A stretch of 64,000 bases of DNA, from contig JAJDZB010000029.1 of NCBI GenBank assembly GCA_022824835.1, forward strand, positions 39,999 to 103,998, written 5' to 3'. Below, piece by piece: positions 12,028 to 39,367 of this stretch. Under the pieces are notes generated by a model. It had not been told where the DNA came from. It did not search any database and worked only from the letters and a program-made list of their open reading frames with translations. Position numbers and translations under genes: made by a program. Positions within the stretch are counted from its first letter, which is position 1, and every line of letters begins with the position of its first letter. Origin of the DNA: Candidatus Poribacteria bacterium. GTDB lineage: Bacteria > Poribacteria > WGA-4E > WGA-3G.

Positions 12028-13380
12028 TTAGAAATAAACACCGAAGTTAAAATTAAGACGCCAGTTCCAAACGTTATTGCCGTTTGCACCAACATCACCC
12101 GCGCCATCGTAGATACTGCCGTAACCTTCTCTGATACCATCACCTGCACTGTTGCCTACAAAGGAATTTCCATCAGACAAACCAAAGTCGCTATAGACAT
12201 ACAGTGAGTCAAAGATGTTCCAACTTATTCCTAATGTCACGAGGGTACTCGGGTTGTAAGTATCAACAGTCTTAAGAATAGTACTCCATTCAATGTATGG
12301 CGTTACACTGTTCAACCATGAGATTTTTTCCGTATTAATCCCACCATACCGTAGTGAAAGGGCAGGTATTAACCCCTCAGATGCAACAGGCCACGCAAAT
12401 TCGTAAGCACCCATCGGAATCAGGTCCCCTGTACCCCATGCCGTATCATCTGAAATATTGTGTACGTAATACGTAAACTGGGTATAGAGCGTGAAATCTG
12501 CTGCTGAGTTCTTCATGTGCGCGGAAAGAGCGTAGTGATTTCCGCTGTCATCGTTTCCGACATTCGTTCCTTGCAGCAACCCGAATTGTGCTGAGACGCC
12601 TATATCTGCGACGTTTTCAAAGGAATAGATTGCACGAAGATTAAACTGATGTTGCTCATCATAACCATTCTCCTCAACACCCCATTGCACATTTCCATCT
12701 TCATCCGCTTTTTCTTCCCATTTCACAACGTCGTATCCATAACGGGCACTATTGAGACTATTTCCTATCGTCTGAGGTTCACTCATGAGGAAATAACCTA
12801 CATCATAAGTCAGTTTACCTGTGTTGTTATGCCATACGATTCCCACATCAGGGTCGTCAGCAAGTCCAACATAAAAATGCTGGTCAAAAAACCAACTGGT
12901 AGAAACACCGTAGTCTGTTGGTCCAAAAGGTACTCGCACAACGCCTGCTTTGACCGTACCCGTATCCTTGAAATCATAACCCAACCAAGCAGTATGTATC
13001 ATGCTGTAACCGATTGAACTACCGAAATACCTCGGATACCACCGATATTCCATCTTTCCAATGACGTTATTAAAGTCAAGGTCAACATTCAACCGCAATA
13101 ATTCAAGATCAACATCGCCAAAGTTTGCCCCTCTACCATCGTCCTCCAAATAAGGCTGACCGGAACTATCATATCGCGTGCGGTCTTCATACGTACCGTA
13201 AACGTAGTTGGCACGCATTGCCCCACCGATTTTTATAGGACTCTTCTTGGGTTCGACTTCTGCACTGTTTTCTGTGGTCGTATCAGCCATCGCGAATGGT
13301 AAAGTTATCAAGAAAAAGACAATACAGAATGTTAGTAAAGGTTGGAACTTTCTATTTTTTATATTAAGCCGTTGTATCAT
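12028..13380 (-). CDS. Outer-membrane beta-barrel (porin-like) protein.
   Basis: The signal peptide starts at M17 of the ORF (MIQRLNIKNRKFQPLLTFCIVFFLITLPFAMA). The alternating hydrophobic pattern, Y/G/N/D richness and C-terminal aromatic residue (…FGVYF) are typical of OM beta-barrels. The start could be 13428 instead. Confidence 0.45.
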   Translation of the reverse strand: MIQRLNIKNRKFQPLLTFCIVFFLITLPFAMADTTTENSAEVEPKKSPIKIGGAMRANYVYGTYEDRTRYDSSGQPYLEDDGRGANFGDVDLELLRLNVDLDFNNVIGKMEYRWYPRYFGSSIGYSMIHTAWLGYDFKDTGTVKAGVVRVPFGPTDYGVSTSWFFDQHFYVGLADDPDVGIVWHNNTGKLTYDVGYFLMSEPQTIGNSLNSARYGYDVVKWEEKADEDGNVQWGVEENGYDEQHQFNLRAIYSFENVADIGVSAQFGLLQGTNVGNDDSGNHYALSAHMKNSAADFTLYTQFTYYVHNISDDTAWGTGDLIPMGAYEFAWPVASEGLIPALSLRYGGINTEKISWLNSVTPYIEWSTILKTVDTYNPSTLVTLGISWNIFDSLYVYSDFGLSDGNSFVGNSAGDGIREGYGSIYDGAGDVGANGNNVWNWRLNFNFGVYF

Positions 13381-13504
13381 ACTATTTTTCTCTAGCACAC
13401 TGCTCCTCCTTATGTACATAATACACATTTGGAGGGATTAAACTGAAATACAAAATATAGGCACAATTTCAGCACGTGGCACCTAAATAGATAGACTGTA
13501 CTGT

Positions 13505-18926: not shown

Positions 18927-19625
18927 ATGCACAAACCACGTACAGTTGATGGAATACTCAGAAAAATAGAAGAAAAAGCAAATACTGGCGAATATCTATA
19001 CCGTGGTGAACCGGAACACTTTCAGGATGTCCCGTATTGTGGGAAGGTTTCCTCTAACTTCTATCGTATTTTCCTTGATGATGAAAACTTTGATATAGAA
19101 GCGGAACACTTTAATATAGAAGAACTCCAAACAGCAGTGTTGAGTATATCTGATCAATTTTCACGAAAACCAATCAGTGATCTTGAACGCTTGTCTGAAA
19201 TTCAACATTATGGAGGTAAAACCAACCTCATTGATTTCACGAAGGATTATCTTATTGCACTTTTTATGGGATGTGATGGGTCTCCTGACGAGGATGGTCG
19301 GATTATCTTGCAAGAAAAGGAATTGATGGAACCCTATATTGAAGAACCTTACGAACCAATAAATCGCGTCATTGCCCAAAAAAGTGTTTTCGTTCGGCAT
19401 CCAGATGGCTTTATTCAACCAGACGAAGAAAACATCATCAATATTAAATCGGACCTCAAAAAGTCAATGTTAGAGCATCTACGATATTCCCACGATATTT
19501 CTTTTGAAACAATCTACAACGATATACATGGCTTTGTAAAAGATCAAAAAAACCACATGCAATTCTACAAGACGATTTATGAAGGTATACTCCAAAAGCA
19601 GAAAGGAGATACAGGATATGGCTAA
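18927..19625 (+). CDS. FRG-domain protein.
   Basis: 'LYRGEPEHFQDVPYCGKV' (the YRGQ/FRG motif) and 'IQHYGGKTNLIDFTKDYLIALFMGC' (the QHYG...LDWT box) define PF08867. Confidence 0.5.
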   Translation: MHKPRTVDGILRKIEEKANTGEYLYRGEPEHFQDVPYCGKVSSNFYRIFLDDENFDIEAEHFNIEELQTAVLSISDQFSRKPISDLERLSEIQHYGGKTNLIDFTKDYLIALFMGCDGSPDEDGRIILQEKELMEPYIEEPYEPINRVIAQKSVFVRHPDGFIQPDEENIINIKSDLKKSMLEHLRYSHDISFETIYNDIHGFVKDQKNHMQFYKTIYEGILQKQKGDTGYG

Positions 19626-21309: not shown

Positions 21310-21349
21310 AGTGTCAAATAAGACGTTTCCTGAATAGAAGATCGTCTCT

Positions 21350-21517
21350 ATGTTCTTTCTAAACAAACCCACCCAAAACAACACCGGATGGTATGTATCA
21401 GAAGAACCCAGAACACGCCTTGGCAAGGGAATTATAGGTCAGATTAAGTATTCTCCAGATGGCACTCAACTTGCTATCGGGAGTTCCATTGGGATTTCTC
21501 CTTCTTCAATTGCTTGA
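21350..21517 (+). pseudogene. Remnant of a WD40-family paralog (N-terminal about 55 codons only).
   Basis: It translates to MFFLNKPTQNNTGWYVSEEPRTRLGKGIIGQIKYSPDGTQLAIGSSIGI.... This is near-identical in pattern to residues about 35-70 of the WD40 genes at 28361, 30506 and 32499 (RIGKGEIGAIKYSPNGTQLAVATTIGIWLYD), but it stops after 55 codons. Confidence 0.45.
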
Positions 21518-21614
21518 AGTAACGCTTCTGCATCTTCCATTGTCACCTGGTGAGATTTATTAATAGCTTCCAAGATTTGTTTAGGTTGTCCCTTCGGTTC
21601 TAAGTTCGGTTCCC

Positions 21615-22355
21615 TTACACCACGCGCAGCTCAACATCAATATCAACATCACGAGTCAGAGTATTCGTCACTGGGGAAGCAGCAAGGGTTTCCTCCCATA
21701 ACGCCTCCAGAATCTCATCGTCTGCATCAGATGCGACATAGATCGTTCCACGCACTGCATTAAAACCGCTATGTCCATCCTGTTCCGTTCCGAGAAAAAC
21801 GAAGATGTTATCAATCTGTCCACTCAATGAGATCTCCAACTCATCTATTTCAATCTTCTGCTGAGATGCGCGAATCTGAAAACCCATTGCCAAACACGCA
21901 CCGAGTGCACCTAAGACATACTCAACAGCACTCGGAGCAGCATCGCGCACATCAAAACTCGCAGGTTGACCTACCGACCACGAATGATTTCTACAGAAAA
22001 CCTTCGCTTGTAGACCACCATCCCAATGGATACGGGTCTGCCATTTATAATCTCGCGCTTGAGCATAAGCAGCATCAGCATCCTGTTCTGCTTCACCGCG
22101 TTGAACGAAATACTTGTTGTGTGATGGTGCAGGTCTCCAGCCAAGATAGGGATTCTCTGTCATACGACACCACGCAGGGAGATCCTCCTTGACACTAATC
22201 TCTGTACTGCGAATCTCCAACACATCACCATCTGGCACTTTTTCCATCGATTTCCGAATCAGAAGCAGTAGACCGGAACCACAATCAAGGTTTCCACCTT
22301 CACAGATATGTAGTGTCTGTAGACTTTCAGGTGCTTGTAAATCTTCTTCTCGCAT
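21615..22355 (-). CDS. Fusion of a TusA-like (SirA/YedF/YeeD fold) domain and an OsmC/Ohr domain.
   Basis: The N-terminus 'ICEGGNLDCGSGLLLLIRKSMEKV' is TusA-like. The C-terminus 'PSAVEYVLGALGACLAMGFQIRA...' is the OsmC core. Confidence 0.45.
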   Translation of the reverse strand: MREEDLQAPESLQTLHICEGGNLDCGSGLLLLIRKSMEKVPDGDVLEIRSTEISVKEDLPAWCRMTENPYLGWRPAPSHNKYFVQRGEAEQDADAAYAQARDYKWQTRIHWDGGLQAKVFCRNHSWSVGQPASFDVRDAAPSAVEYVLGALGACLAMGFQIRASQQKIEIDELEISLSGQIDNIFVFLGTEQDGHSGFNAVRGTIYVASDADDEILEALWEETLAASPVTNTLTRDVDIDVELRVV

Positions 22356-22667
22356 TGATATTAATACCCTGGGATTGTAATTGAATTGTAAGATGTGAAT
22401 CCTAAGTGTTGATATATATTAGAATGGACTGTAGTGAGTTTCTTGGCAGGACTGATGAATTATATCTTTTTTAAAGTGTATCTTTTAGGAATATGAATGA
22501 GTATCCCTCCTTTGGAAAAAAGTTGGCAGTGTATCAACCATGCACAATTTACTTTCGTAAGGAAACCTTTTCCATAATGGGAGGGAGACTCTAAGTTCTG
22601 GTTTTGGATTCAGCCGAACCCTTATGAAGATTCCTGCCATGCATAGCAGAAACTCCTTTTTCAGTTG

Positions 22668-23027
22668 TCAATAGGTTAGACTTGATCCGCCCGTAATTAA
22701 AAACTCAACAGCCTTAGCCCCCCCAACAATGACTGCATTCTCTACAAGGTTTTCTTCATCAAGGTTCCGCTTTTTGAAGCATGGTGAACAGACCCAGATT
22801 GTTCCGCCAACCTCAGCAAAGTCTGTCATGAGTTGTTTCAACGGTGCGAAACCTTCTTCGTGTATATCATCTGCATACCCATCTTGTGATAAATGCACAC
22901 CTTCTGTGCTAAGAAAAACAACGGTTTCAATACCAGAGGCTACAGAAGCATTTGCAACAACAAAACCGACAGTTGCTTTGTCGGTGTTATCTTTAGCGTG
23001 CGTAATGCTTATCATGAGTTTAGACAT
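22668..23027 (-). CDS. DsrE/DsrF-like sulfur-relay family protein.
   Basis: It is a 119-aa YchN-fold protein with 'ITHAKDNTDKATVGFVVANAS...VVFLSTEGVHL...VCSPC'. Confidence 0.55.
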   Translation of the reverse strand: MSKLMISITHAKDNTDKATVGFVVANASVASGIETVVFLSTEGVHLSQDGYADDIHEEGFAPLKQLMTDFAEVGGTIWVCSPCFKKRNLDEENLVENAVIVGGAKAVEFLITGGSSLTY

Positions 23028-27130: not shown

Positions 27131-27333
27131 TTTAGTTACGGTACACGGAGAGTGTCTACTACTATTAAGAATAATGATTGTCTCAAAGAACGGCACACGG
27201 AGAGTGCCTACTACTTTAAAGACAGTGAAATTTCATTGACAACTGATACATAATCCATTATAGTTAATTTATCACGATCCATCCGAAAATGCAATAGATT
27301 TAACAGGTGCAATTCTTTAACAGGTGCAAGGCC

Positions 27334-28296
27334 ATGATTAAATTAAGACATTACGTTCTCACGCTCACACTTATGAGTTTTCTTTTCATCGGTTGTGCAC
27401 AAGACTCAAAACAAATTACATGGGAAAAAGTTAACAGCGGGACCAGCGCGCACCTTTACGGCGTGAGTTTCTTGGATGGAAAGAATGTCTGGGCAGTTGG
27501 AAGTGATGGCACCGTTCTATCATCTAAGGACGGTGGGAAGAACTGGAGTGGAAACGATGAAAAGTCCATTGCCACGTATACGTTGACACATGTCAATTTT
27601 ACCACTCCCATAAATGGTTGGATTGTGGGCAGAGGAAATATACATTATACCGGTAGCGCGGGTAATTCGTGGAAGATACAACATCAGATACGATCCACAA
27701 GTAATATAACCCCCGGTATCTTAGACCTGTATTTTATCAATACAACAGAAGGTTGGGCTGTCGGAGGAGTTGACGGAATCGGTATGTCAACGATACTCTA
27801 TACGCAAAATGGTGGTGGATCATGGGAAAAAGTCAACAACCCTTCAGATAGACATCTCTGGGGAGTACATGCTTTTGAATCATCCGTTTGGGTTGTCGGA
27901 GAAAAGGGAGAAATCTTACATTCACCAAATGGTGGGAAACAGTGGACTCGTCAGCTCAGCAATGCAGAACAACCGTTATTCGCTGTACATTTCCCACATC
28001 CCTCTAAAGGCTGGATAGTTGGATCCGATGGTCTGATTTTGCATACTACGGATAAAGGAATAAACTGGACGCGACAAACGAACCCGATGAAACAGAGTCT
28101 AAGAGATGTTCATTTTCAAGACGAAGAACGGGGATGGGCAGTCGGTGAGGAAGGCGTCATACTTCATACGCAAGATGGCGGAAAAACGTGGACAAACTAT
28201 CCTTCACCGACAACAAAAAACTTGCAGGATATCCATTTCAACGGGAATATCGGATGGATCGTCGGTGAGAAGGGTGTTATCTTACGAACAAAATAA
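27334..28296 (+). CDS. Ycf48-like/BNR (Asp-box) beta-propeller lipoprotein.
   Basis: It has a lipoprotein signal (LMSFLFIGC) and repeated 'S.DGGK.W' Asp-box motifs (SKDGGKNWS, TQNGGGSWE, SPNGGKQWT, TTDKGINWT, TQDGGKTWT). Confidence 0.6.
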   Translation: MIKLRHYVLTLTLMSFLFIGCAQDSKQITWEKVNSGTSAHLYGVSFLDGKNVWAVGSDGTVLSSKDGGKNWSGNDEKSIATYTLTHVNFTTPINGWIVGRGNIHYTGSAGNSWKIQHQIRSTSNITPGILDLYFINTTEGWAVGGVDGIGMSTILYTQNGGGSWEKVNNPSDRHLWGVHAFESSVWVVGEKGEILHSPNGGKQWTRQLSNAEQPLFAVHFPHPSKGWIVGSDGLILHTTDKGINWTRQTNPMKQSLRDVHFQDEERGWAVGEEGVILHTQDGGKTWTNYPSPTTKNLQDIHFNGNIGWIVGEKGVILRTK

Positions 28297-28360
28297 CCTT
28301 CTGATGCAAAATGCTTTGACCAATTCCGAATTGCAGTGAAGGTTCTGCAAGGACAGTGTC

Positions 28361-30505
28361 ATGAAAAAGTTACTATTTCTGAATATCTTTTCTCTAATCC
28401 TCCTTACAACATACTACCATTCTAACGTTTCGGCTGAGAACCATACGCGTTGGGATTTACCAGATGGTGCAATTGCACGTATTGGAAAGGGTGAAATTGG
28501 TGCAATAAAGTACTCACCTAATGGCACGCAACTCGCGGTCGCCACTACCATCGGTATATGGCTATATGACGCTAAAACATATCAAGAATTAGACCTGTTA
28601 AAGGAGGCAGATGTTTCCCCTTATGACGAAAGAGGAATTGCTTTCAGTCCAGATGGTAACACCCTCGCGACTTCTAATGGTAGTTTTGGAGGTATTAAAC
28701 TATGGGATATTGCAAATGGCACAATAAAGAAAACACTATTGGACGGGATTATACCTAAGGGTGCTGAGAATGTGTTGTTCAGCCCTGATGGTACAACGCT
28801 TGCAACTTATAGATACAAGGAGCTATTTTTATGGGATGTTGTTACTGGTAAAAACAGGACTCTCGGCGGAAATACAGATTATGTTGGAGGATTCGCGTTA
28901 AGTCCTGATGGAAAGATACTCGCGAGTGGTAGCAGGGATCAGACTATCATTCTGTGGGATGTTGATACAGGTTCAATTAAACATACACTTAAGGGACATA
29001 CGGATTCTGTTACCAGTGTTTCTTTTAGTCCCGACGGTAAAACGCTTGCAAGCGGTAGTAGTGATAACGCAATCAGATTTTGGGATATTGAAACAGGCAC
29101 ACATGTGAAAACTTTCAAAGAAGCGGAGGTTAATGTTACACAAATATCATTTAGTCCGAATGGACAATTCATTTTAAGTTGGGGGAAGGGTAATTCCAAA
29201 ATCCTCTTGTGGGATGTCAATACTGGAGAATACAAGCAGATTGATGATAATAAGAAGCGACGCATGGGTGTCTGTTTCAATCCTGACGGTAATATGATCG
29301 CTGCAGCACATGAATACCATACTATCGATTTTTTTAATTTAACTACTGGAGAACACAAAAAAAGAATAGTTGGAAATAACTATAAAGATCTTACGTTTTT
29401 TATGGGTAAATTTGCTGATCTTACGCTAAGTCCTGATGGTACAAAGTTCGTAAGTATGAATATTGACAACTCTATTAACCTATGTGATATTACGTCTGGA
29501 CAATGCAAATTGCTAATACCACATACACCAGACCATAGTATCAGAAGTCTGAATAGATTTCTGTTTAGCTCAGATAGTAACCTGTTTGCGGGGATGTCTT
29601 CGGACGGTTTTATAGGGTTGTGGGATGCAAATACAGGTAATGAACGACACACTTCCAAAAGAATACAATTATTTGAAAAGAATCATACGGCATTAGATCA
29701 TAGTCCTCTGTATGCACCTGTATTCGGTTTTGCTTTTAGTCCAGATAGTCAGATACTCGCAAGTGCAAGTTCAAAACATTCAATCCATCTATTAGATACT
29801 ACAACGGGGAATATTAGACACTCACTCCAAGGTCATACTGCAAGGGTCGGGAGTCTCTCTTTTAGTTCCAATGGACAAACACTTGTGAGTGGAAGTCATG
29901 ACGGTACGATACGCTTTTGGAATACAACCACCGGAAAACTAAATAAAACCATAACAAACCGAATATTAACAAAGCAACAGACAATGGAACCCATCGCTAT
30001 CTCTACAATAGCATTAAATCCAGAAGGGGATAGAGTCGCAAGCGGCAACCAAGATGGAACTATCGTTATGTGGAATGTTGTTACCGGAGAAAAACAACTA
30101 ACTTTTACAGGACACGCTGATGCAATCTCAAAGATCTTTTTCAGTCCAGATGGACGTAAAGTCGTCAGCACAAGTAAAGACGGATCAGTTCGCCTATGGG
30201 ATGTCGCAACTGGACAGCAAGAATACGCCATCGCTGGTTACAGACTAACGGATTGGAAAGTATTTCTATATGAAAATGGAGTGTCACTGGCAAGCGAGAC
30301 GAAACTGGTGCTAGGTGCTGCTGGAAAACCTTATGTTAACTTATGGGATTTAAACACTAAAAAACGCATAAAAATACTGACAGGACACAATGATAGAGTC
30401 ACGAGCATCGATTTCAGTGACGATGGTAAGACGCTTATCAGCGGTAGCAGAGATGGAACTGTCCTTGTGTGGGATATCCCGAGCATCATTCAGGAGGTCG
30501 AATAA
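28361..30505 (+). CDS. WD40-repeat protein (about 14 blades, two propellers) with an N-terminal signal/anchor.
   Basis: It has repeated '...SPDGKTLASGSxDxTIxLWDVxTG' WD40 units and an N-terminal hydrophobic segment. Confidence 0.8.
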   Translation: MKKLLFLNIFSLILLTTYYHSNVSAENHTRWDLPDGAIARIGKGEIGAIKYSPNGTQLAVATTIGIWLYDAKTYQELDLLKEADVSPYDERGIAFSPDGNTLATSNGSFGGIKLWDIANGTIKKTLLDGIIPKGAENVLFSPDGTTLATYRYKELFLWDVVTGKNRTLGGNTDYVGGFALSPDGKILASGSRDQTIILWDVDTGSIKHTLKGHTDSVTSVSFSPDGKTLASGSSDNAIRFWDIETGTHVKTFKEAEVNVTQISFSPNGQFILSWGKGNSKILLWDVNTGEYKQIDDNKKRRMGVCFNPDGNMIAAAHEYHTIDFFNLTTGEHKKRIVGNNYKDLTFFMGKFADLTLSPDGTKFVSMNIDNSINLCDITSGQCKLLIPHTPDHSIRSLNRFLFSSDSNLFAGMSSDGFIGLWDANTGNERHTSKRIQLFEKNHTALDHSPLYAPVFGFAFSPDSQILASASSKHSIHLLDTTTGNIRHSLQGHTARVGSLSFSSNGQTLVSGSHDGTIRFWNTTTGKLNKTITNRILTKQQTMEPIAISTIALNPEGDRVASGNQDGTIVMWNVVTGEKQLTFTGHADAISKIFFSPDGRKVVSTSKDGSVRLWDVATGQQEYAIAGYRLTDWKVFLYENGVSLASETKLVLGAAGKPYVNLWDLNTKKRIKILTGHNDRVTSIDFSDDGKTLISGSRDGTVLVWDIPSIIQEVE

Positions 30506-32458
30506 ATGAAAACAAAACTACGTCCAATTTACATTATCCTGTGCGGTATAATCGCTGTTCTAATCCTGAGTCTTGTCTTAAGTCAATCTCAAAAAGAACA
30601 TTTTCAAAATGAGACTATTCTTCACGAGTCCCCCCAACTGAATCTACCTAAAGATGTTAAACTGCGTATCGGCAAAGGGAGTGTGAACGAGTTAACATAT
30701 TCACCGGATGGTTCTGCTTTAGCAGTCGTAACTTCCACAGGTATATGGCTGTATGATACGACCACATATCAAATGCAAACTGTGTTGTCAGGTGGAAGTT
30801 ATGGTAATATGAATGCGGTGTTTAGTCCCGATGGAAGATTTCTCATCGCTGGCAGCCCAGATAGAATTATCTATTTATGGGATACTTCAACATACAGACT
30901 CAAACAGACTCTTGTTGGGCATGAGAGTGCAATAACGAATCTCCTATTTAGCTTTGATGGAAAAACAATTGTAAGTACGGACATACACGAGATTAACCTG
31001 TGGGATGTCTCTACTGGTACCCATAAGAACTACAGCAGGGGTTATGTTCCAAGGCTGGGGTGTAGTATATGGCTCAATAATGATGAGGGACTTTTGGCAA
31101 CTACGGAATCCAATAATGACAATAGAGTACGTATATCCGATCTCATCACAAGGGAAGTAAAGATGGAACTGGGTGGACACACGAACCATATAAAAAGCCA
31201 ATCATTTAGTCCAGATGGAAAGTTACTCGCAAGTGGGAGTTGGGACACAACCATACGGATATGGAGAATGCCAGAAGGAATACATAAGTCGACCTTAAAG
31301 GGACATGAGAAAAGTATCAATAAAATTGTGTTTAGTCATGATAGCCAATTTCTTGCGAGTGCAAGTAGGGATGACACCGTCCGTATATGGAATGTGAATT
31401 CAGGTAAACTTAAAAACACTCTTAAAGCACATTCAGCAGATGTTAAGCACATAGCACTCAGTCCTGATGGGAAAACACTTGCAAGTTGGGGGTACGATCA
31501 CATGCTACACATCTGGGATGTTGACACTGGAAAACTCAAGCAGACAATCACCGGCCACCTTGCACCTATTTCGTCCGTTTCATTTCGTCGCGATTCAGAG
31601 ATGCTTGCGTTCGGAGCATCCAAAGAAATCCATCTTTGGGATATAGTTGAAGGTTTACACTATAAGACACTTTTCGGCCACAAAGGATCTGTCGACTGCC
31701 TGGCATTTAATCCTTCTGACAATACACTCGCAAGTGGTAGTGTTGACGAGACAATACGACTGTGGGATACAGACTCCGGCAACAGTAGAAAAACTATCAA
31801 AGGACATGTTACTGATAAAGATACTTACTCAAAAATTAGAAGCCTATCTTATAGTCCTGATGGGAAAACACTTGCAAGCTCAAGCAACGATAGGACGATC
31901 CGTTTGTGGAAGGCAAGAAGTGGTTGGCATCAGAAGACTATCAAAGGACATACAGACGCGGTTAGATCGCTTGCGTTCAGTCCTGATGGGAAAACAGTGG
32001 CAAGCGGTGGGGGCTCGGACGATAGTACCGTTCGGTTGTGGGATGTTACAAACGGAAAACAGAAGATAATACTTACTGATTTTACATCAGGTGTATCTGC
32101 AGTAACGTTCAGTCCAAATGGAAACATCCTTGCAAGTGGCGATAAAGATAGTGTTAAACTATGGGATGTTAACACAGGTGTATTACTGAGAGTTTTAGGT
32201 TCGGATATATTTATTGTTAGTAGTTTATCTTTCAGTCCTGATGGGAAAACACTTGCATGTGGGAGTTGGGATAGTAAAGTCAGACTATGGGATGTTGCTA
32301 CAGGAAAGTTGAAAGAAACACTTACAGGACACTCAAATTTGGTCTTTGGTGTGGCGTTTAGTTCTGATGGGAAGACTCTGGCAAGTGCCAGTGCAGACGG
32401 AACTGTGTTGCTCTGGGATATGGAAGCAATTATCAATAGAACAGATCTCGTGAAATAA
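30506..32458 (+). CDS. WD40-repeat protein, paralog 2.
   Basis: It has the same architecture as the gene at 28361. Its start immediately follows the stop of the previous gene (TAAATG). Confidence 0.8.
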   Translation: MKTKLRPIYIILCGIIAVLILSLVLSQSQKEHFQNETILHESPQLNLPKDVKLRIGKGSVNELTYSPDGSALAVVTSTGIWLYDTTTYQMQTVLSGGSYGNMNAVFSPDGRFLIAGSPDRIIYLWDTSTYRLKQTLVGHESAITNLLFSFDGKTIVSTDIHEINLWDVSTGTHKNYSRGYVPRLGCSIWLNNDEGLLATTESNNDNRVRISDLITREVKMELGGHTNHIKSQSFSPDGKLLASGSWDTTIRIWRMPEGIHKSTLKGHEKSINKIVFSHDSQFLASASRDDTVRIWNVNSGKLKNTLKAHSADVKHIALSPDGKTLASWGYDHMLHIWDVDTGKLKQTITGHLAPISSVSFRRDSEMLAFGASKEIHLWDIVEGLHYKTLFGHKGSVDCLAFNPSDNTLASGSVDETIRLWDTDSGNSRKTIKGHVTDKDTYSKIRSLSYSPDGKTLASSSNDRTIRLWKARSGWHQKTIKGHTDAVRSLAFSPDGKTVASGGGSDDSTVRLWDVTNGKQKIILTDFTSGVSAVTFSPNGNILASGDKDSVKLWDVNTGVLLRVLGSDIFIVSSLSFSPDGKTLACGSWDSKVRLWDVATGKLKETLTGHSNLVFGVAFSSDGKTLASASADGTVLLWDMEAIINRTDLVK

Positions 32459-32498
32459 GGCAGATACTAAGAGAAGTCTATCAAGGAAAAGACATAAA

Positions 32499-34583
32499 AT
32501 GAAAAAGACATTGCTTTCAATTGCTCTGATAGTAGGCATCGTTGCGTTTTTTTTAATACTGCAAACTATTTCAAAACGCGAACATCCGGATCACATGATG
32601 TTTATTCCTGATAATCCACAGTTAAACTTACCGGAAAATGTGAAGGCACGGTTAGGAAAAGGTAGCGTTGAAATGTTAGTGTTTTCTCCTGATGGTAACG
32701 TATTAGCAGTTGTGAGTACTATTGGCATTTGGTTGTATGATGCACATACTGGTGAATTTCAATCAATGGTGTCGGCTAACTCTGGACAGATAGCAGATAT
32801 TGCCTTCACACCAGATAGCCAGACACTTGCCTGTGGGGAAGAGGACGGACCCATCAGTTTGTGGGATGTGTCAACAGGAACTCTCAAGAGAACCTTAAGA
32901 ATAGATCGCATGTGGTCACTTAGCAGTATTGCGTTTATTAACAACGGAAAAACATTAGTTAGTGCAGCGGATTATCATTATTTGGACTTTTGGGATGTGT
33001 CAACAGGAGAACTTCCGCTGTCTCACTTTAATGGATATTCACGAGACAAAACTGTTTTTAGTCCTGATGGGATGAAACTTGCCAGTACAAATCCCAAATT
33101 TGAAATCACGCTATGGGATGTTCCAACAGGTCAACATAGTGAAACTGTCTTAAAAAATGAAAACACTGTTACGGATTTGAGATTTAGTCCTGACGGAAAA
33201 GTATTGGTAAGTATAGCTGCAGATAAAACTATACACTTGTGGGATGTTGAAGAGCTCAAGTACTTACGGACAATTCAAGAAAAAAGGAATTACGCTTCTA
33301 CAGTTGCGTTCAGTCCGGATGGTAAACTTCTTGCGCGTCCGAATGCTGATAATACAATACATTTCTGGGATGTTGCCACTGGCACACTTGAAAGAACCAT
33401 TACTGGACACACATCTCCTGTCAAGAACGTAGTATTTAGTCCTGATGGTAAGACATTAGCAAGCTGGAGTGAGCACGGACTTCTTCATTTGTGGGATTTC
33501 GCAACAGGAGAGATCAAGAAAACGATCACGGGTCATATTTCTAATACTCAAAAGGTATTGCTGAGTCCAGACGGACAGACATTAGCAACACAGGATGTTA
33601 TAGATAAAAAGATAATTCATCTGTGGAATGCCAATACAGGGGAACACGAGAAAACGCTCTTAGGACATAAGAAAAATATCCAAGATGTGGCATTTAGTCC
33701 TGTTGGAACTATACTTGCAACGGCAGCTAATAAAACCATCCGTTTATGGGATATTGAATCAGGTAAACAGAAGAAAGCATTTAAAGGACATACACAACTA
33801 ATTATCGACCTTTCGTTTAGTCCTAATGGTAAAATGCTGGCAAGTATAGATTTCTACGGTGTTATTCGCCTCTGGGATATGGAGTCGGGAAAAAGATTTG
33901 GAACTATCAGGACGCGTACAGGTGGATTTTCCCATATAGAGTTTAGTTCCGATGGCAAAACACTTTTAAGAGTATTCTGGGACCGTTCTTTCAAATTATG
34001 GGATGTAGCAACATTTAAGCAAAAGCAAACTAATATCGTAAAAGGAGATGAACCTAAAATTGATAATCTATCTAAACTGAGTCCAGATTTTCAGACGGTA
34101 GCAACTTCACTTTCTGATCGTAAGGGTTGGACAGGACCAGATTTTCAGATAGGCCTGTGGGATGTTGCTTCGGGTGAGTTTACACATACACTTATTGGAC
34201 ATACCGATAGCATTACATCCATTGCTTTCAGTCCAGATAGTAACATGTTGATAAGCTGCGCGAATGATAATACAATCAGAATGTGGGATGTCGCCTCGGG
34301 TGAGCAGAAACGTATAATTACTCGTCAAGATCTTCCATTTCCACAGAACGTTGTTTGGCAGACCGTTGTTTGGGATGAGGGATTCAGTTTGGATGGTCGC
34401 ATTCTCACCCACACAACGGGGGAAGGTCTTATACATCTATGGGATTCATTTACTGGTCAACATAAGAAAACACTCAAAGGACATACAGATAAAATTGTTA
34501 GTTTATCATTCAGTATAGACAATCATATCTTAGTCAGTAAGAGCAAAGATGGGACAGTCTTGGTATGGGACTTGCAACATTAA
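32499..34583 (+). CDS. WD40-repeat protein, paralog 3.
   Basis: It has the same architecture, with an N-terminal TM segment and 13-14 WD40 units. Confidence 0.8.
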   Translation: MKKTLLSIALIVGIVAFFLILQTISKREHPDHMMFIPDNPQLNLPENVKARLGKGSVEMLVFSPDGNVLAVVSTIGIWLYDAHTGEFQSMVSANSGQIADIAFTPDSQTLACGEEDGPISLWDVSTGTLKRTLRIDRMWSLSSIAFINNGKTLVSAADYHYLDFWDVSTGELPLSHFNGYSRDKTVFSPDGMKLASTNPKFEITLWDVPTGQHSETVLKNENTVTDLRFSPDGKVLVSIAADKTIHLWDVEELKYLRTIQEKRNYASTVAFSPDGKLLARPNADNTIHFWDVATGTLERTITGHTSPVKNVVFSPDGKTLASWSEHGLLHLWDFATGEIKKTITGHISNTQKVLLSPDGQTLATQDVIDKKIIHLWNANTGEHEKTLLGHKKNIQDVAFSPVGTILATAANKTIRLWDIESGKQKKAFKGHTQLIIDLSFSPNGKMLASIDFYGVIRLWDMESGKRFGTIRTRTGGFSHIEFSSDGKTLLRVFWDRSFKLWDVATFKQKQTNIVKGDEPKIDNLSKLSPDFQTVATSLSDRKGWTGPDFQIGLWDVASGEFTHTLIGHTDSITSIAFSPDSNMLISCANDNTIRMWDVASGEQKRIITRQDLPFPQNVVWQTVVWDEGFSLDGRILTHTTGEGLIHLWDSFTGQHKKTLKGHTDKIVSLSFSIDNHILVSKSKDGTVLVWDLQH

Positions 34584-34697
34584 TGCACACAACAGAACCT
34601 ATAAGATAAAAGTTATCAACTGTAGTTGGTTTCTAATTGGATTTTCAATTTTTTTTACACTTCTTCTATAGGAGCGATCTCCAAATTGCAAGTCATA

Positions 34698-35882
34698 ATG
34701 AATCATTATACGTCCGCTATAATCGTTGTTCTCTTTGTTCTAATTTCCTGTGTTGCCGGATGTGAGATCATTCCAACAGAGGCAATCACCACTGAACCGG
34801 TAAAAAAAGTTGCCATTGCAAACATCACGGCATTAGATGGGAGCAGTCTGACAGGCACCGCGACATTCACTGAAACTGACATGGGTGTTCATACTATTAT
34901 TGAGATACACAATGCTACACCCGGTTTACATGCAGCACATCTCCATATCGGTAGCAACTGTGCGAATGTAGGACCGCATTGGCATCCGATGAGTGTGCCC
35001 GCAGGCAATGTTGGTATCCCCGTAGCAGAGGCAAATCTTGACATGCCCCCAATCGGCATAGGTGAGATCGGAAACATTCCAGTCGATCAAAACGGAACGG
35101 GTATTTTGGAATTCACAACACCGTTCTGGTCAATTGGTGGAGAACCGAGTACTGATATACTCGGTAAATTGCTGCTTATCCACGAAACAGGTGATACCTT
35201 CATAACCCATCCGCACGCTTCTCCGATAGATAACACGGATACAACCCCAGGAACTCACATCCATACTATAGGACAGACGGAACCAGTACAAGCAACCCAT
35301 CTATGTACTTTGGCAGTACTCGGACAACAAGTAGATCTTGAGACAGCGCATCATCTTCCAGGTGAATCCGTGAGTCCGCATAGTCACGACCTGTTAGAGC
35401 TGCTGCTAAAGTGTTTTCTAAAGCCTGAACAGTTAGTTGATCCACGAATTGCCTTTACGATTCCGCTGGAGGGAACACCAGAATTCCGAGCATTCATGGA
35501 TATCGAACCCAAAAGTTTAGTCGCATATCACGAATTCTTTATTTCTATAGGGCTACCTGTAGATCCTGATTTCTTCACAAATCAGTTTAAACTAACTTAC
35601 ACTACTGGTACTCCTGAAGATTTTGTAATGGAGATGCAGAATAGGCTAACACATCTTTATATCACGTCTGGAATAGATATTGAGAATCCAGCTGATGAGA
35701 CGGGTTATAGTTTGTTACTTACAATGTTCTTAGATGAACAAACGACAGCGTGGGTGTTGGGTTATTTTCAAGGAGATGATGCTGCTTTTGGGGAGTGGAT
35801 AAACAGTGTGCTTGGGGAGTTACAGGTGCGTCCAGGCGGCGGTTCTCGTGTGGGATGTGGTGTAATCGGATTGGTGGAGTAG
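34698..35882 (+). CDS. Lipoprotein with a Cu/Zn superoxide dismutase-like domain and a long His-rich C-terminal extension.
   Basis: It has a lipobox (LISCVAGC). 'ATFTETDMGVHTIIEIHNATPGLHAAHLHIGSNCANVGPHWHP' and 'GEIGNIPVDQNGTGILEFTTPFWSIGGEPSTDILGKLLLIHETGD' parallel the SodC motifs (GLxPGxHGFHVH, GPHFNP, GDLGNI...SIIGRSLVVH). Confidence 0.5.
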   Translation: MNHYTSAIIVVLFVLISCVAGCEIIPTEAITTEPVKKVAIANITALDGSSLTGTATFTETDMGVHTIIEIHNATPGLHAAHLHIGSNCANVGPHWHPMSVPAGNVGIPVAEANLDMPPIGIGEIGNIPVDQNGTGILEFTTPFWSIGGEPSTDILGKLLLIHETGDTFITHPHASPIDNTDTTPGTHIHTIGQTEPVQATHLCTLAVLGQQVDLETAHHLPGESVSPHSHDLLELLLKCFLKPEQLVDPRIAFTIPLEGTPEFRAFMDIEPKSLVAYHEFFISIGLPVDPDFFTNQFKLTYTTGTPEDFVMEMQNRLTHLYITSGIDIENPADETGYSLLLTMFLDEQTTAWVLGYFQGDDAAFGEWINSVLGELQVRPGGGSRVGCGVIGLVE

Positions 35883-35943
35883 TATATCATTCAAACAAAA
35901 CTCCTTGACCTAAACATCATTATCCGTTATTATATCCAACACA

Positions 35944-36951
35944 ATGAAAACACAAAATCACATCATAATCTTAGCAGTATACATCACTATTCTAATGACA
36001 ATAACTACTGTAATTGTAGAAGCACAAATATTAATTGATTCTGTAATTGCAGTCGTCAATAAGCAAGCAATTACGCAAAGCGAACTTGTGAACGAGTTCC
36101 GTATCAATGCGATTGTTGATAAACACCTTATAAGTGAACCGAATGATGACGAAAAACGCACGCAACTAAATCACATAATTGACCGAAAGTTTGTCCTGCA
36201 AGAGGCAGAGAGAATCGGTATTACGGATACTGACCAAAAGCAACAGATCTCGGAACGAATTGCTGCTATACAGAAAGAATATACATCAAAGAGAGAGTTC
36301 AGTCAGGTCTTGCAAAAGCAAGATATAGAAATCCAAGCATTGGAAAAATGGGTATATGATCACATTATCTATGATGAATACTATAGATTAAAATTTGTTA
36401 ATTCTATTAATCGTAAAGAGATCGAAGAATTAGCACCGCAGTACTTTGAAACAAATAAGAAACACTTCATTGCCCCCGCTACCGTCACAATTCGTTCAAT
36501 TCTCGTTTCTATCCCCAAGGACAGCTCGAATATAGAAAAGCGATCTCTCAAGACGTTATCGGAGGATATAAGTCTGCACTTTAAACAGGGAAATACGTAT
36601 GCTGAAGTGAGTCAAAAGTATAAACCGAATCCATCAGTTTCTTTCGCTACATTAACACTAAATTCTGATACACCGTTGGGAGAGATAGTTTCGCAAATGA
36701 AACCCAACGATCACATGGGACCTATTCCTGTTCCTGAAGGTTTACGGATCGTTGAATTAGTTCAGAAAAGACCATCTCGGCAGAAACAATACTCTGAAGT
36801 AAAAGATGAGATCGCAGCTCTAATAAGGAATAGCAGGGCTGAAACAGCATTCAAAAAATGGTTAATTAAACAGAAAGAAAATGACCCTTGGTATATCTTA
36901 GATGATGCACTTAGACATGTATCAGTGACGAATATAAAAACCAAAGAATAG
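35944..36951 (+). CDS. SurA/PpiC-type peptidyl-prolyl isomerase-like chaperone.
   Basis: It has a SurA-N-like 'IDSVIAVVNKQAITQSELVNEF' followed by a parvulin-like region. Confidence 0.5.
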   Translation: MKTQNHIIILAVYITILMTITTVIVEAQILIDSVIAVVNKQAITQSELVNEFRINAIVDKHLISEPNDDEKRTQLNHIIDRKFVLQEAERIGITDTDQKQQISERIAAIQKEYTSKREFSQVLQKQDIEIQALEKWVYDHIIYDEYYRLKFVNSINRKEIEELAPQYFETNKKHFIAPATVTIRSILVSIPKDSSNIEKRSLKTLSEDISLHFKQGNTYAEVSQKYKPNPSVSFATLTLNSDTPLGEIVSQMKPNDHMGPIPVPEGLRIVELVQKRPSRQKQYSEVKDEIAALIRNSRAETAFKKWLIKQKENDPWYILDDALRHVSVTNIKTKE

Positions 36952-36955
36952 TCCG

Positions 36956-38578
36956 ATGAAACCCCTACGATATCGTTCTTTTCTCTCAACTATCTTTCTC
37001 TTATTGCCCCTCTTATTGACTACCTCTGTGCTTGCAGATGTGACATCATGGGATATTTCAACCTATCCAAAAATCGTTCAGGAAAAACTTCAGAAAGCAC
37101 AAAACGCATTCAAAGAGGAAAACTACCAGCAAGCACTTGATTTATACAGATCACTCACAAAAGAGGAACCAGAACTTCTTGCTGCGTTCATTGGACAAGG
37201 TGATTCCTTCGCAAAGTTAGGAGATTACACTGAAGCGATTAGCATATATCAACAATCATTACGACTGATTTCTGCGTCGACGCAACCTGAACGTTTCGCA
37301 TATCAGCCTTTTGTGGAAGCGAAACTTGCGACCGCTTACCATCGCAATAAACAACTTGAAAAGGCTGATGACCTGTTTCAAAGTGCTGTCAAAGGTGCAG
37401 GAGCAAATACACCAGTGACGTGGTACATTGCGTTGGCACAGATTGAAACAGAACGTAACAACTTAGAAAAGGCGCGTAGATATTACATCGTTGCAGTGCA
37501 GCTCTATCCAGATAATACTGCTACATACAGCAACCTGAGACATGTGTTACTAAAACTGAACAGACTTGATGAGGCGGATGCAGTCTTCCGACAGGCACTG
37601 ATTTTGGATAACACTTTGGGACGCGCTGCTTTTGGACGCGGAGAAGTCGCAGCAAAACGTGGAAATTTCACATTAGCACGTCAATACTATGAAAACGCTA
37701 TACAAAGTACACCCAACGAACCGATATTCCATAAATCTCTTGCTGAGATTCTCACAATAATGGGTGATGTTCAAGGAGCAGAATCTACGAATAGACGTTA
37801 TAAACAGACATTGGCAGAAGTCTATCGGCAACAAGCACTCCCTTTTATAAAAAAAAGACAAGGGATCCCTGCATTGGAACTACTAAAAAAGTCGATTGAA
37901 ACAGATGAGACCTACCTACCTGCCTTGAAAGACTATGCTTATGTGCAGATGCAGTTAGACAACTTAGATATAGCAAAACAGACTTATCAGAAAGTACTAA
38001 ACAGAGAACCCAATTCAGTACAAGCATTGCTACACCTGGGTATGATAGAATCAAGACGCGGTAATAGAAATGTAGCAGAATCGTATTTTCAGACGTTAAT
38101 CAATAATGAACCAGAATTCATGGATACTTACTATCAACTTTCAAAACTGCGCGAGATATCAGGAGACTTAAAAGGAGCAGAAAATGCATTGACTTCTGGT
38201 ATTCAGAAGAATCCGTCGTGGGCACCAGGATATTTGTGGAGAGGACACATCTATCTCAAGCGCGATCTAACACATAAGGCTGAGATAGATTATCGACAAG
38301 CAATAAAACATGCACCTAATGTCCCATTTCCTAAAGATGCGTTAGCATCATTGCTTGCAAAAGAGAATAGATTGCTAAACGAAGCTCTTAGATTTTCTGA
38401 AGCAGCAGTCGCAATAGACCCCCGTCCTACACACATTGCAACGCGTGCGTATGTGTACTTTCGGCTAAATCGTCTTACAGAAGCGAAACGTGAAATATCT
38501 AAGGCTTATGTACTATCACCAAAAAGTCCTTATGTTTTACACATACGCACTGAAATTCTTAATCCTGACTTAAAGTAA
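36956..38578 (+). CDS. Secreted TPR-repeat protein.
   Basis: It has a signal peptide and multiple TPR units (AxxxLGxxYxxxGxxxxAxxxYxxAL). Confidence 0.6.
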   Translation: MKPLRYRSFLSTIFLLLPLLLTTSVLADVTSWDISTYPKIVQEKLQKAQNAFKEENYQQALDLYRSLTKEEPELLAAFIGQGDSFAKLGDYTEAISIYQQSLRLISASTQPERFAYQPFVEAKLATAYHRNKQLEKADDLFQSAVKGAGANTPVTWYIALAQIETERNNLEKARRYYIVAVQLYPDNTATYSNLRHVLLKLNRLDEADAVFRQALILDNTLGRAAFGRGEVAAKRGNFTLARQYYENAIQSTPNEPIFHKSLAEILTIMGDVQGAESTNRRYKQTLAEVYRQQALPFIKKRQGIPALELLKKSIETDETYLPALKDYAYVQMQLDNLDIAKQTYQKVLNREPNSVQALLHLGMIESRRGNRNVAESYFQTLINNEPEFMDTYYQLSKLREISGDLKGAENALTSGIQKNPSWAPGYLWRGHIYLKRDLTHKAEIDYRQAIKHAPNVPFPKDALASLLAKENRLLNEALRFSEAAVAIDPRPTHIATRAYVYFRLNRLTEAKREISKAYVLSPKSPYVLHIRTEILNPDLK

Positions 38579-38767
38579 CCTATGCGTTTAAATTTTGTTG
38601 AAAAAAACAAAAAAATGTGATATTATTAATTTAGTTTGTGTATACATGAATTTGAAGAGTTACATACAAAGGTAAAACGGATTTTTAATTATAGAAGCTT
38701 TACCTTTAATCTTAAACTCTTCTCTTAATTTTATTCTTAAGATATAAATAAAATAAGGAGCATTATA

Positions 38768-39367
38768 ATGCTAAAATATCAGATCGCATTTCTTATCATG
38801 CTAATCGGTTGCGTCGCCATAGTGTCATGTAGTCGAATTCAGGATACGTTAATGCAAGTCCCGGATGATCCAGAACCGGATGCATACCGAACCTGGACAG
38901 ATATGATAACACTTGATGGACCATTGGTGGAATTTAAGGGAGAAGCTCATGATTTTGGATCCCGTACAATCTACTTTAACGAAGCCGCTGCTATGGCTAA
39001 TAACGAAGGAACAGACTATCCGGTCGGTTCCATGATAGTTAAAGAATCAATGGATATGACCAACTCATTTATCTCACAGATCTCAACGATGACTAAAACC
39101 GAGTCTGCAGAAAATGGCGGTTGGGCTTATGGCGTAACCGGTCCATTTGGTGATGCAGCTGTAGATCCGAAGGGAATAAATAATCTGACAGCAGAAATGG
39201 CTGCAGGCGCATGTGTGGGTTGTCATACAGTAGCAGCTGATACCGATTTTGTCTTCGTTAAACTCGCCATGGAAGATGATGGCATGACCGATGATGGCAT
39301 GACCGATGATGGTGATGGTGAAACTACCACCACTACCAACGGTAATGGAAACGGGAACGGTGCCTAA
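38768..39367 (+). CDS. c-type haem (CXXCH) lipoprotein, cytochrome P460-like, with an acidic repeat tail.
   Basis: It has a lipobox (LIGCVAIVSCS) and a single CVGCH motif near the C-terminus, as in cytochrome P460. The tail is MTDDGMTDDGMTDDGDGETTTTTNGNGNGNGA. Confidence 0.4.
   Translation: MLKYQIAFLIMLIGCVAIVSCSRIQDTLMQVPDDPEPDAYRTWTDMITLDGPLVEFKGEAHDFGSRTIYFNEAAAMANNEGTDYPVGSMIVKESMDMTNSFISQISTMTKTESAENGGWAYGVTGPFGDAAVDPKGINNLTAEMAAGACVGCHTVAADTDFVFVKLAMEDDGMTDDGMTDDGDGETTTTTNGNGNGNGA

Follow-up and report, generated by a model that had tools for sequence, protein, structure and literature searches.

Within a window of 64,000 nucleotides (the whole stretch of Candidatus Poribacteria DNA analysed here) we identified three co-oriented WD40 genes, which probably form a genuine, vertically inherited cassette specifying anciently diverged, exported proteins that we infer to serve as protein-binding scaffolds of the cell envelope. 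ORF analysis placed all three on the + strand between positions 28361 and 34583, with products of 714, 650 and 694 aa (WD1, WD2 and WD3, respectively), and the first two are separated by TAAATG only, in agreement with a preliminary description of this DNA.

Gene products and export signals

The products of WD1, WD2 and WD3 matched PF00400 (WD40) with E-values of 1e-72 to 5e-112 (237–362 bits against a cutoff of 27 bits). Using a repeat HMM we counted 15 units in WD1, 14 in WD2 and 15 in WD3; the earlier estimate of about 14 blades each therefore holds for WD2 and has to be raised for the other two. Each protein possesses a single N-terminal hydrophobic segment. For the a-type gene WD1 (28361..30505, + strand), manual reading identified a short h-region and the sequence SNVSA/EN, which resembles a cleavable Sec signal peptide and is accompanied by the LPDGAIARIGKG head. 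For the b-type gene WD2 (30506..32458, + strand) and for WD3 (32499..34583, + strand), the segments comprise 19 residues with Kyte–Doolittle means of 2.9 and 2.6, respectively, resembling TM anchors, and are followed by a linker (~20 residues in WD2) and the WD40 repeats. The start codon of WD2 abuts the stop codon of WD1 (GAATAA followed directly by ATG), with AGGAGG located 8 nt upstream of the ATG.

Comparison of orthologs revealed that the N-termini of WD1, WD2 and WD3 are kept across five or six lineages. Localization was judged from hydrophobicity, the −3/−1 rule and family context: WD1 would leave the Sec pathway as a free periplasmic protein, and the propellers of WD2 and WD3 would project into the periplasm from an anchor in the inner membrane. 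In the WDb relatives of WD2 (see below), positive charge is found on both flanks of the TM segment, making orientation less clear.

Predicted structures and variable positions

In the AlphaFold2 model of WD2, a TM helix and a linker precede 14 blades made up of 56 strands (pLDDT 87.4, pTM 0.83), and WD3 was modelled as ~15 blades (pLDDT 81.9, pTM 0.75), with N-terminal helices at residues 6–34 and 2–24, respectively. A Foldseek search with the WD2 model returned 2ymu_A as the best match (E 2e-49, 37 % identity), together with 7mqa_LQ (TMq 0.69) and Aip1 (1nr0), whilst the WD3 model matched 7mq8_LQ (TMq 0.68). Both models match known two-propeller structures; as such, WD2 and WD3 are predicted to fold as tandem double propellers, and the 15-unit proteins would split 7+8 or 8+7. 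The original proposal, of paralogs with two propellers each behind a putative N-terminal export signal or anchor, is supported by sequence identity, by the hydrophobic segments and by these AlphaFold2 and Foldseek results.

Among orthologs, variation was highest at repeat positions 14–16, 18 and 34–36, corresponding to the D-A and B-C loops on the top face of the blade, and the structural positions FS, DG and LWD were nearly invariant. Some excess variability of top-face loops is expected in any WD40 protein.

The wider family and the question of host interaction

WD1–WD3 are members of a large family whose proteins open with an export signal (a signal peptide, a lipobox or a TM anchor) and carry the motif LPEGAKARLGKG after it. 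A homology search with WD2 was dominated by long generic WD40 proteins, and the orthologs of 80–91 % identity were not among the listed matches; across 123 WD2 relatives, the head motif stood straight after the N-terminal signal peptide or anchor in 36 and after a longer N-terminal region in 24 more. With a 57-aa head as the query, 1,899 cluster representatives were retrieved at E ≤ 1e-10. A hydrophobic leader was present in 97 of the 103 best matches with an N-terminal head, a lipobox in four and a T9SS CTD motif in 31, and the family relative P0077 scored 35 bits with TIGR04183, the model of the T9SS type A sorting domain, which is above the 23-bit cutoff.

The presence of this sorting domain on about a third of the family members with an N-terminal head lends itself to an alternative explanation, in which WD1–WD3, either exposed on the cell surface or released from it, interact with the host as adhesins or effectors that bind sponge matrix or phagocytic machinery, and are not periplasmic scaffolds. 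Such a role has been hypothesised for ELPs in the literature (PMC3909097) and would suit a sponge or coral symbiont; the focus of variation on putative binding loops and the mosaic recombination that we detected in WD3 are likewise consistent with it. We nevertheless view this as a possibility of the somewhat unlikely kind, as no match to TIGR04183 was found in WD1, WD2 or WD3, which lack the CTD and have C-termini that stop directly after the last blade; moreover, two of the three proteins are predicted to be TM-anchored, and hence held at the inner membrane, no T9SS structural genes were found in Poribacteria by Kamke et al. (2014; PMC3909097), and no WD40 ELP is known to have been tested for function. 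In the envelope-scaffold reading that we prefer, WD1–WD3 would bind proteins via the top faces of their blades, the site at which ortholog variation is concentrated, and would belong to an accessory 'eukaryote-like' envelope repertoire of the symbiont, not to its essential machinery.

Divergence of the three genes and a recurring gene pair

Pairwise protein identity among WD1, WD2 and WD3 amounts to only 31–36 %, and at the DNA level similarity is limited to short WD motifs. Near-identical copies would have raised the suspicion of an assembly duplication artefact, for which only the richness of these genes in repeats could speak; given such low identity and the lack of extended DNA similarity, this explanation retains next to no probability. 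Furthermore, the array was assembled independently in L001, L003, L005, L006 and L020 (related loci are identified here by L numbers), and six assemblies, each independent of the others, show the same order, one instance being a 5.9-Mb contig (ctg105762 of ERZ25069580).

In a neighbour-joining tree WD1 grouped with the WDa genes of L014, L015 and L023 (99 % bootstrap) and WD2 with WDb (100 %); WD3 branched as the sister of WD2 and WDb together, with weak support (66 %). WD1 and WD2 are 40 and 51 % identical, respectively, to these second-locus genes, whereas they share only 31 % with each other. A recent tandem duplication was rejected on the grounds that each is nearer to its second-locus counterpart than to the other, with the high bootstrap values given above; as judged from these comparisons, WD1, WD2 and WD3 are ancient subfamilies.

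The tree also shows that WD1, of the signal-peptide type, and WD2, of the TM-anchor type, are a conserved gene pair recurring at a second Poribacteria locus. There, the WDa–WDb pair is flanked by genes for a 250-aa protein and DUF6785, both of them unrelated membrane proteins, and the stop–start abutment of the a–b pair is conserved. WDa and WDb may be paralogs of WD1 and WD2 within one genome or, alternatively, relocated orthologs. One could envisage that the translationally coupled pair encodes a dedicated heteromeric envelope WD40 complex, with a soluble periplasmic double propeller docked on a membrane-tethered one. We hold this to be unlikely; if true, the a–b complex would amount to a WD40 scaffold system located outside the cytoplasm, without a characterised bacterial counterpart.

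Conservation and loss across related loci

The closest loci were found in Candidatus Poribacteria MAGs, in which the Ycf48-like protein encoded upstream of the array is 84–94 % identical and flanking genes in syntenic loci are 72–94 % identical. Gene order, including the flanks, is conserved in L003, L005, L006 and L020. At the distant locus L020, identity to the window is 76–79 % for the WD genes, compared with 79 % for the SOD-like gene and 68–69 % for the SurA and TPR genes.

Several loci have lost all or part of the array. In L004, a complete Poribacteria chromosome (OZ242325.1), WD1–WD3 are missing and the Ycf48-like gene directly precedes the SOD-like gene; blastn break points at window positions 28334 and 34697 delimit an absent stretch of 6.4 kb (28335..34696). 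L002 has lost WD1 and most of WD2, with 264 codons missing from the start of WD2 along with another three repeats, and L005 has lost four WD3 repeats in frame. L021 and L022 retain the SOD-like, SurA, TPR and P460 genes, with the WD genes and the Ycf48-like gene absent. As the array is present in L020, a lineage more distant than the array-less L004, these comparisons indicate that the cassette is old and probably inherited vertically, and that it is eroding through deletions, of which several lie between WD repeats and keep the frame. The preliminary description had seen an expansion in a host-associated bacterium; the phylum is indeed one of sponge and coral symbionts, but the direction of change appears to be mainly loss, not expansion.

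Family turnover had also been claimed on the strength of a truncated fourth copy, and the deletions in L004, L002 and L005 now document it better than that relic does. The relic itself (21350..21517, + strand) is a 55-codon ORF containing the head motif and first blade only, with no signal peptide, and is 51 % identical to WD1 aa 22–66; its DNA matches that of the WD1 head in L006 and L003 at 72 % identity. The surrounding region, 21310–21610, has no counterpart in L006 and the relic is absent from the related loci; neither the window nor these loci yielded any further WD fragment or copy.

Erosion of this kind might suggest that the WD genes are remnants in decay that no longer have a function, a view with which the relic, the deletions in L002, L004 and L005, and dN/dS values about twice those of neighbouring genes would be in keeping (three Ycf48-like comparisons were left out, because the sequence ahead of the true start contained an in-frame stop). 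We consider it highly improbable, as the window, L003, L006 and L020 all have intact WD ORFs, dN/dS for the WD genes (0.29–0.67) is below 1 in every comparison, the FS, DG and LWD positions and the N-terminal signals are conserved, and in L020, the deepest comparison, conservation of the WD genes equals that of the SOD-like gene. The WD genes thus appear to be under purifying selection, although the elevated dN/dS and the deletions in three lineages also fit relaxed constraint.

Flanking genes

The array lies within a co-oriented block on the + strand. The best sigma-70-like promoter match ahead of it (27236..27264, + strand; TTGACA-17-TATAGT, 11/12) is a consensus match only, with site counts not above those of shuffled sequences, and no terminator-like sites were found on the + strand between 26800 and 39800. 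The first gene (27334..28296, + strand) specifies a BNR/Asp-box beta-propeller lipoprotein (PSII_BNR, PF14870, E 8e-48; lipobox FIGC). The earlier designation of this neighbour as BNR/Ycf48-like is upheld as regards the BNR propeller and lipobox, but the protein is only Ycf48-like: it was rejected as a true Ycf48/HCF136, with 143 bits against the 326-bit cutoff of the NCBIfam Ycf48 model. Ycf48 equivalogs occur in oxygenic phototrophs, and Poribacteria are not known to be phototrophic. A metagenome scan with the Ycf48-like alignment yielded only relatives of 28–31 % identity, none of which shared the gene context.

Downstream, the predicted Cu/Zn-SOD-like lipoprotein and SurA-like chaperone are both present. 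The former (34698..35882, + strand, with the ATG at 34698 as the true start) matched PF00080 (Sod_Cu, E 7e-14) and bears the lipobox VAGC; as a genuine SodC it was rejected, scoring 31 bits against the 250-bit equivalog cutoff. In a split alignment with 7b4o, the Cu histidines, bridging His, catalytic Arg and disulfide Cys are retained, the equivalents of the Zn ligands (which we take to be H71, H80 and D83 in that numbering) are substituted, and an insertion of ~205 aa interrupts the SOD barrel ahead of its last strand. Among 247 relatives of this protein, all those with a source name are labelled Poribacteria. The SurA-like PPIase chaperone (35944..36951, + strand) matched PF13145, PF13624 and PF09312 (SurA_N/Rotamase) and has a hydrophobic N-terminus, either signal or anchor. 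It is followed after 4 nt by an exported TPR protein (36956..38578, + strand; signal peptide VLA/DV) and then by a cytochrome P460-like lipoprotein (38768..39367, + strand; PF16694, E 7.5e-11, with a lipobox), which ends the co-oriented block.

The co-orientation, short gaps, single upstream promoter-like site and lack of terminator-like sites could be taken to mean that the WD proteins form one envelope-biogenesis or redox module with the Ycf48-like, SOD-like, SurA-like and TPR proteins, particularly as every partner bears a lipobox or signal peptide, so that all products carry export signals, and as the order is kept in L003, L005, L006 and L020. However, L004 retains the Ycf48-like, SOD-like and SurA genes without any WD gene, L021 and L022 keep the SOD-like, SurA, TPR and P460 genes with neither the WD genes nor the Ycf48-like gene, and the related WDa–WDb pair lies among unrelated membrane-protein genes. 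Since these three loci keep flanking genes without the WD genes, an obligatory functional link is weakened, and we regard such a module as decidedly unlikely. The cassette of envelope scaffolds would sit inside a putative operon whose products all bear export signals.

Discussion

No genomic signature of sponge symbiosis is cited more often than eukaryotic-type repeat proteins; to our knowledge, there is no WD40-class ELP with a known location, partner or function. In Poribacteria, WD40 domains are abundant and over-represented relative to free-living bacteria, frequently accompany a TMH or signal peptide, and occur on genes that also carry TIGR04183 (Kamke et al., 2014; PMC3909097). The proteins described here resemble those ELPs in phylum, in PF00400, in their predicted N-terminal TMHs or signal peptides and in having relatives with a Por/T9SS sorting domain; they differ in that the earlier study gave domain counts without resolved loci (Kamke et al., 2014; PMC3909097) and in that the window proteins, unlike their relatives, have no sorting domain.

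With respect to structure, Npun_R6612 of Nostoc punctiforme (PDB 2YMU) is similar to WD2 in its 14 repeats and two seven-bladed propellers; its repeats are near-identical, whereas those of WD1–WD3 have diverged and are accompanied by predicted N-terminal export or anchor signals. We know of no report of an export signal for Npun_R6612. Fourteen-repeat WD40 proteins are over-represented in prokaryotes (PMC5587647). Eukaryotic 7+7 WD40 proteins (Aip1, 1NR0; UTP/WDR3-type SSU-processome subunits; Gemin5) have the same overall tandem-propeller fold, with query-normalised TM-scores of 0.67–0.70 over 630–710 alignment columns, but they are cytoplasmic or nuclear and only 14–21 % identical to the window proteins, and the resemblance is therefore one of fold, without a functional link. 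TolB and PD40-type propellers are, similarly, periplasmic beta-propeller scaffolds of Gram-negative envelopes and gave weak NCBIfam matches; TolB membership was rejected (TIGR02800, 56–69 bits against a cutoff of 343 bits), the window proteins having true WD40 repeats (GH...WD), two propellers and no TolB N-terminal domain.

The WD array is a sound but mostly ordinary addition to a repeat-protein class known to be abundant in Poribacteria; the present analysis adds to it a recurring a–b gene pair, a LPEGAKARLGKG head, models with double propellers and a history of deletions. The locus offers handles in the form of a head motif linked to an export signal and a two-gene pair testable for complex formation, and it provides natural deletion variants among closely related symbionts (0, 1.4, 2.7 and 3 genes) that may be correlated with host or niche. 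In addition, entire blades have been lost in frame through recombination between repeats, which shows a route by which propeller size can change. Current views of these proteins are refined, not overturned, by the WD locus.

Three diverged WD40 genes within a block of putatively exported proteins

Three co-oriented genes, WD1 (28361-30505), WD2 (30506-32458) and WD3 (32499-34583), encode proteins of 714, 650 and 694 aa. As stated in the preliminary description, the first two nearly touch: the stop of WD1 abuts the start of WD2 (TAA/ATG), and an AGGAGG motif precedes this ATG by 8 nt. Each of the three scores strongly as a WD40 protein (237-362 bits to PF00400). Using a repeat HMM built from the three proteins themselves, we counted 15, 14 and 15 units, respectively; the ∼14 blades ascribed to each therefore hold for WD2, but not for WD1 and WD3. 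Because the proteins share only 31-36 % pairwise identity, and at the DNA level resemble each other in short WD motifs alone, they are not the near-identical copies that an assembly duplication would yield. Additionally, the exact WD2 protein recurs in an independent Logan assembly, flanked by the neighbours that it has in the window.

Every product of the block at 27334-39367 carries an N-terminal signal, anchor or lipobox. By consensus matching only, the top-ranking promoter-like site immediately precedes its first gene, and no terminator-like sites were found on the plus strand inside it. The first gene (27334-28296; lipobox FIGC) matches PSII_BNR/Ycf48 with an E-value of 8e-48; with a score of just 143 bits, well under the NCBIfam Ycf48 cutoff of 326 bits, its product is not Ycf48 but a BNR propeller resembling it. 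The array is followed by four further genes. The first, whose true start is ATG 34698, encodes a Cu/Zn-SOD-like lipoprotein (lipobox VAGC); the others encode, in order, a SurA-like PPIase, an exported TPR protein and a cytochrome P460-like lipoprotein. The Ycf48-like, SOD-like and SurA-like neighbours agree with the earlier assignments. The SOD barrel of the SOD-like lipoprotein (34698-35882, plus strand) is split by an insert of ∼205 aa: positions 13-137 of SOD correspond to residues 43-173, and the last strand corresponds to residues 379-392. The protein retains the Cu histidines, catalytic Arg and disulfide Cys, whereas other residues appear to occupy the Zn-ligand positions. Its 247 relatives at E ≤ 1e-30 are labelled Poribacteria wherever a source label exists.

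When the Ycf48-like protein was searched against species-representative genomes, five loci were recovered (84-94 % identity), one being a complete 4.25-Mb chromosome. Four are labelled Candidatus Poribacteria and one (L002) 'uncultured bacterium', which bears out the proposed sponge-symbiont source. Relatives of a protein from a second WD locus, described below, are likewise labelled Poribacteria wherever the source is named.

N-termini, predicted structure and the wider family

A signal or transmembrane anchor had been proposed for each protein, and the pattern of the N-termini would fit this. That of WD1 (MKK, an h-region of 12 residues, then VSA/EN) has the pattern of a putative cleavable Sec signal peptide, whilst in WD2 and WD3 the opening MKTKLRP and MKKT, respectively, lead into a strongly hydrophobic stretch of 19 residues (Kyte-Doolittle means of 2.9 and 2.6). 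No hydrophobic segment besides the N-terminal one occurs in any of the three, and these N-termini are nearly unaltered among orthologs of five or six lineages.

The AlphaFold2 model of WD2 (pLDDT 87.4, pTM 0.83; input alignment of 13 rows) consists of a helix (residues 6-34) and, past a disordered linker, 56 strands that make up 14 blades. Its top Foldseek match in the PDB is 2YMU (E-value 2e-49, 37 % identity), a Nostoc protein that likewise has 14 repeats; two-domain WD40 proteins with this number of repeats, 2YMU being an example, are common in prokaryotes (Hu et al., 2017; PMC5587647). Subsequent matches are tandem seven-plus-seven propellers, namely UTP/WDR3-type subunits (TMq 0.69), Aip1 (1NR0) and Gemin5. 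The WD3 model (pLDDT 81.9, pTM 0.75; helix 2-24, about 15 blades) matched the same class. For the two proteins modelled, the suggestion of two propellers per protein is thus borne out; in the 15-unit proteins, WD1 and WD3, the split could be either 7+8 or 8+7.

Following the leader, WD1-WD3 and a WD1-like relic share a head motif, LPxxxxxR(I/L)GKG...YSPDG..LAV...IGIW(L/I)YD. It is present in 60 of 123 relatives of WD2, directly after an N-terminal hydrophobic leader in 36 (junction often ..FAQDYTQWxLPEGAKARLGKG) and behind an N-terminal domain of ∼200-350 residues in 24. A phmmer search with the 57-residue WD1 head gave 1,899 matches at E ≤ 1e-10 among 1.84 billion cluster representatives. Among the best 147 of these, the head lies inside the first 110 residues in 103, of which 97 carry a hydrophobic leader; a lipobox is seen in four of the 103, and a C-terminal motif of T9SS type in 31. 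Export routes therefore vary by family member between signal peptidase I sites, lipoboxes, uncleaved anchors and sorting domains, and this spread is our main argument that the propellers are probably extracytoplasmic.

WD40 domains are highly abundant in Poribacteria, proteins of this sort frequently carry a TMH or SP, and it is WD40 genes in particular that bear the sorting domain TIGR04183 (Kamke et al., 2014; PMC3909097). One relative in the family, P0077, exceeds the TIGR04183 cutoff; WD1-WD3, in contrast, do not, and end directly past the last blade. Surface display is accordingly less likely for these three than for relatives bearing such C-terminal domains. A second 'eukaryote-like' exported protein of the window (7565-9445, minus strand; 626 aa) combines LDL-receptor class B (YWTD) repeats, cohesin, dockerin and a C-terminal FlgD_ig/T9SS-like domain; the LDL-receptor type was also highlighted by Kamke et al. 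(2014; PMC3909097). Two minus-strand ORFs at 12028-13428 and 13729-15618 (466 and 629 aa) had no Pfam match at E ≤ 1e-5.

A conserved gene pair in two genomic contexts

The closest non-orthologous relatives of WD1 (753-795 aa, 37-40 % identity) and WD2 (634-649 aa, 50-51 %) are neighbouring genes, WDa then WDb, at a separate Poribacteria locus ordered GFO_IDH, 250-aa membrane protein, WDa, WDb and two DUF6785 genes. At the three such loci (L014, L015 and L023), the WDa-WDb genes invariably come after one for a hydrophobic protein of 219-250 aa and before two for tandem 648-aa DUF6785 membrane proteins; L014 and L015 also have a Type ISP restriction enzyme in the vicinity. In a neighbour-joining tree (100 bootstraps), WD1 joins WDa at 99 % support and WD2 joins WDb at 100 %, so that a signal-peptide type and a TM-anchor type keep together at two different sites; WD3 is sister to the WD2/WDb clade with weak support (66 %). 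The WD1/WD2 stop-start abutment is kept in four related loci (L003, L005, L006 and L020). The two pairs may be either paralogs within one genome or one pair relocated: the SOD-like protein of the WDa-WDb lineages is only 58-63 % identical to that of the window, and at this distance WD identities of 40-50 % could reflect orthology.

Gain, loss and recombination

The array is complete in L003, L006 and a 5.9-Mb contig, L020 (712, 672 and 705 aa). In the complete chromosome OZ242325.1 (L004) the WD genes are absent, homology stopping at 28334 and restarting at 34697. Provided that the flanks follow the species tree, the cassette would have been lost secondarily in L004, because the array-bearing L020 has the most diverged flanks of the set (Ycf48-like 72 %, SurA 69 %; 84 and 78 % in L004). 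In L002 (∼96 % DNA identity to the window), 28362-31296 is missing, and with it WD1 and part of WD2 (264 codons); another 393 bp, corresponding to three repeats, are also gone. What is left is a signal-less remnant of 257 aa and an intact WD3. In L005, WD3 is reduced to 537 aa by an in-frame 504-bp deletion (four repeats) with a 37-bp overlap at the junction. The reported truncated fourth copy at 21350-21517 is indeed a WD1-related relic, a head plus first blade within a 300-bp patch absent from L006. Turnover of the family is therefore real, as had been claimed, but in this clade it runs mostly towards loss and not expansion.

More distant loci (L021 and L022) retain the SOD-like gene without adjoining WD genes or Ycf48-like gene. 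We find no support for a role of WD1-WD3 linked to the genes on either side, since these persist where WD genes are missing and the related WDa-WDb pair has unrelated neighbours. A second variable slot lies between the SOD-like and SurA-like genes, with three minus-strand ORFs (227, 164 and 206 aa) in L002 (10406-12197) and different insertions in L021 and L022.

On its minus strand, the relic patch (21310-21610) contains part of an ORF, ..KQILEAINKSHQVTMEDAEALLQAIEEG.., resembling the end of a further broken gene, and an FRG-domain gene (18927-19625) is an insertion relative to L006; together they form a small junkyard of gene fragments beside an expanded TPR gene. At 21615-23027 (minus strand) lie a TusA-OsmC fusion and a DsrE-like gene of sulfur-relay type, upstream of divergent BadF-ATPase/SIS/DUF362 genes and conserved (95-99 % identity) across related loci of Poribacteria.

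At the DNA level, the 5' half of WD3 (32400-33600) shares 93-97 % identity with L003 and L005, against 83-87 % for flanking genes, and dS of WD3 is 0.13 versus 0.34-0.42 in neighbours; this half looks like a recombination tract swapped between lineages.

Selection and proposed role

Compared with their orthologs, the WD genes have dN/dS values of 0.29-0.67, against 0.05-0.32 for neighbouring genes, and are constrained, if less tightly than the latter. In the deepest comparison, L020, WD conservation equals that of the SOD-like protein and exceeds those of SurA and TPR. Stacking ortholog variation on the repeat frame, we found the fraction of variable columns to be 0.47-0.63 at repeat positions 14-16 and 0.40-0.57 at 34-36, which correspond to the top-face D-A and B-C loops. 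The bottom loops gave 0.11-0.38, and the FS, DG and LWD core gave 0.00-0.17. This pattern fits evolving binding surfaces, and in part would be expected of any WD40 protein.

From these data we infer both localization and function. Most likely, WD1 would be exported by Sec and then released into the periplasm, WD2 and WD3 would stay tethered to the inner membrane through uncleaved anchors and ∼20-residue linkers, and all three would serve as envelope protein-binding platforms. The evidence supports their membership of a known class, the exported 'eukaryote-like' WD40 proteins of Poribacteria, to which the conserved a-b gene pair (WD1/WDa with WD2/WDb), the family head motif and blade-wise deletions add new details.
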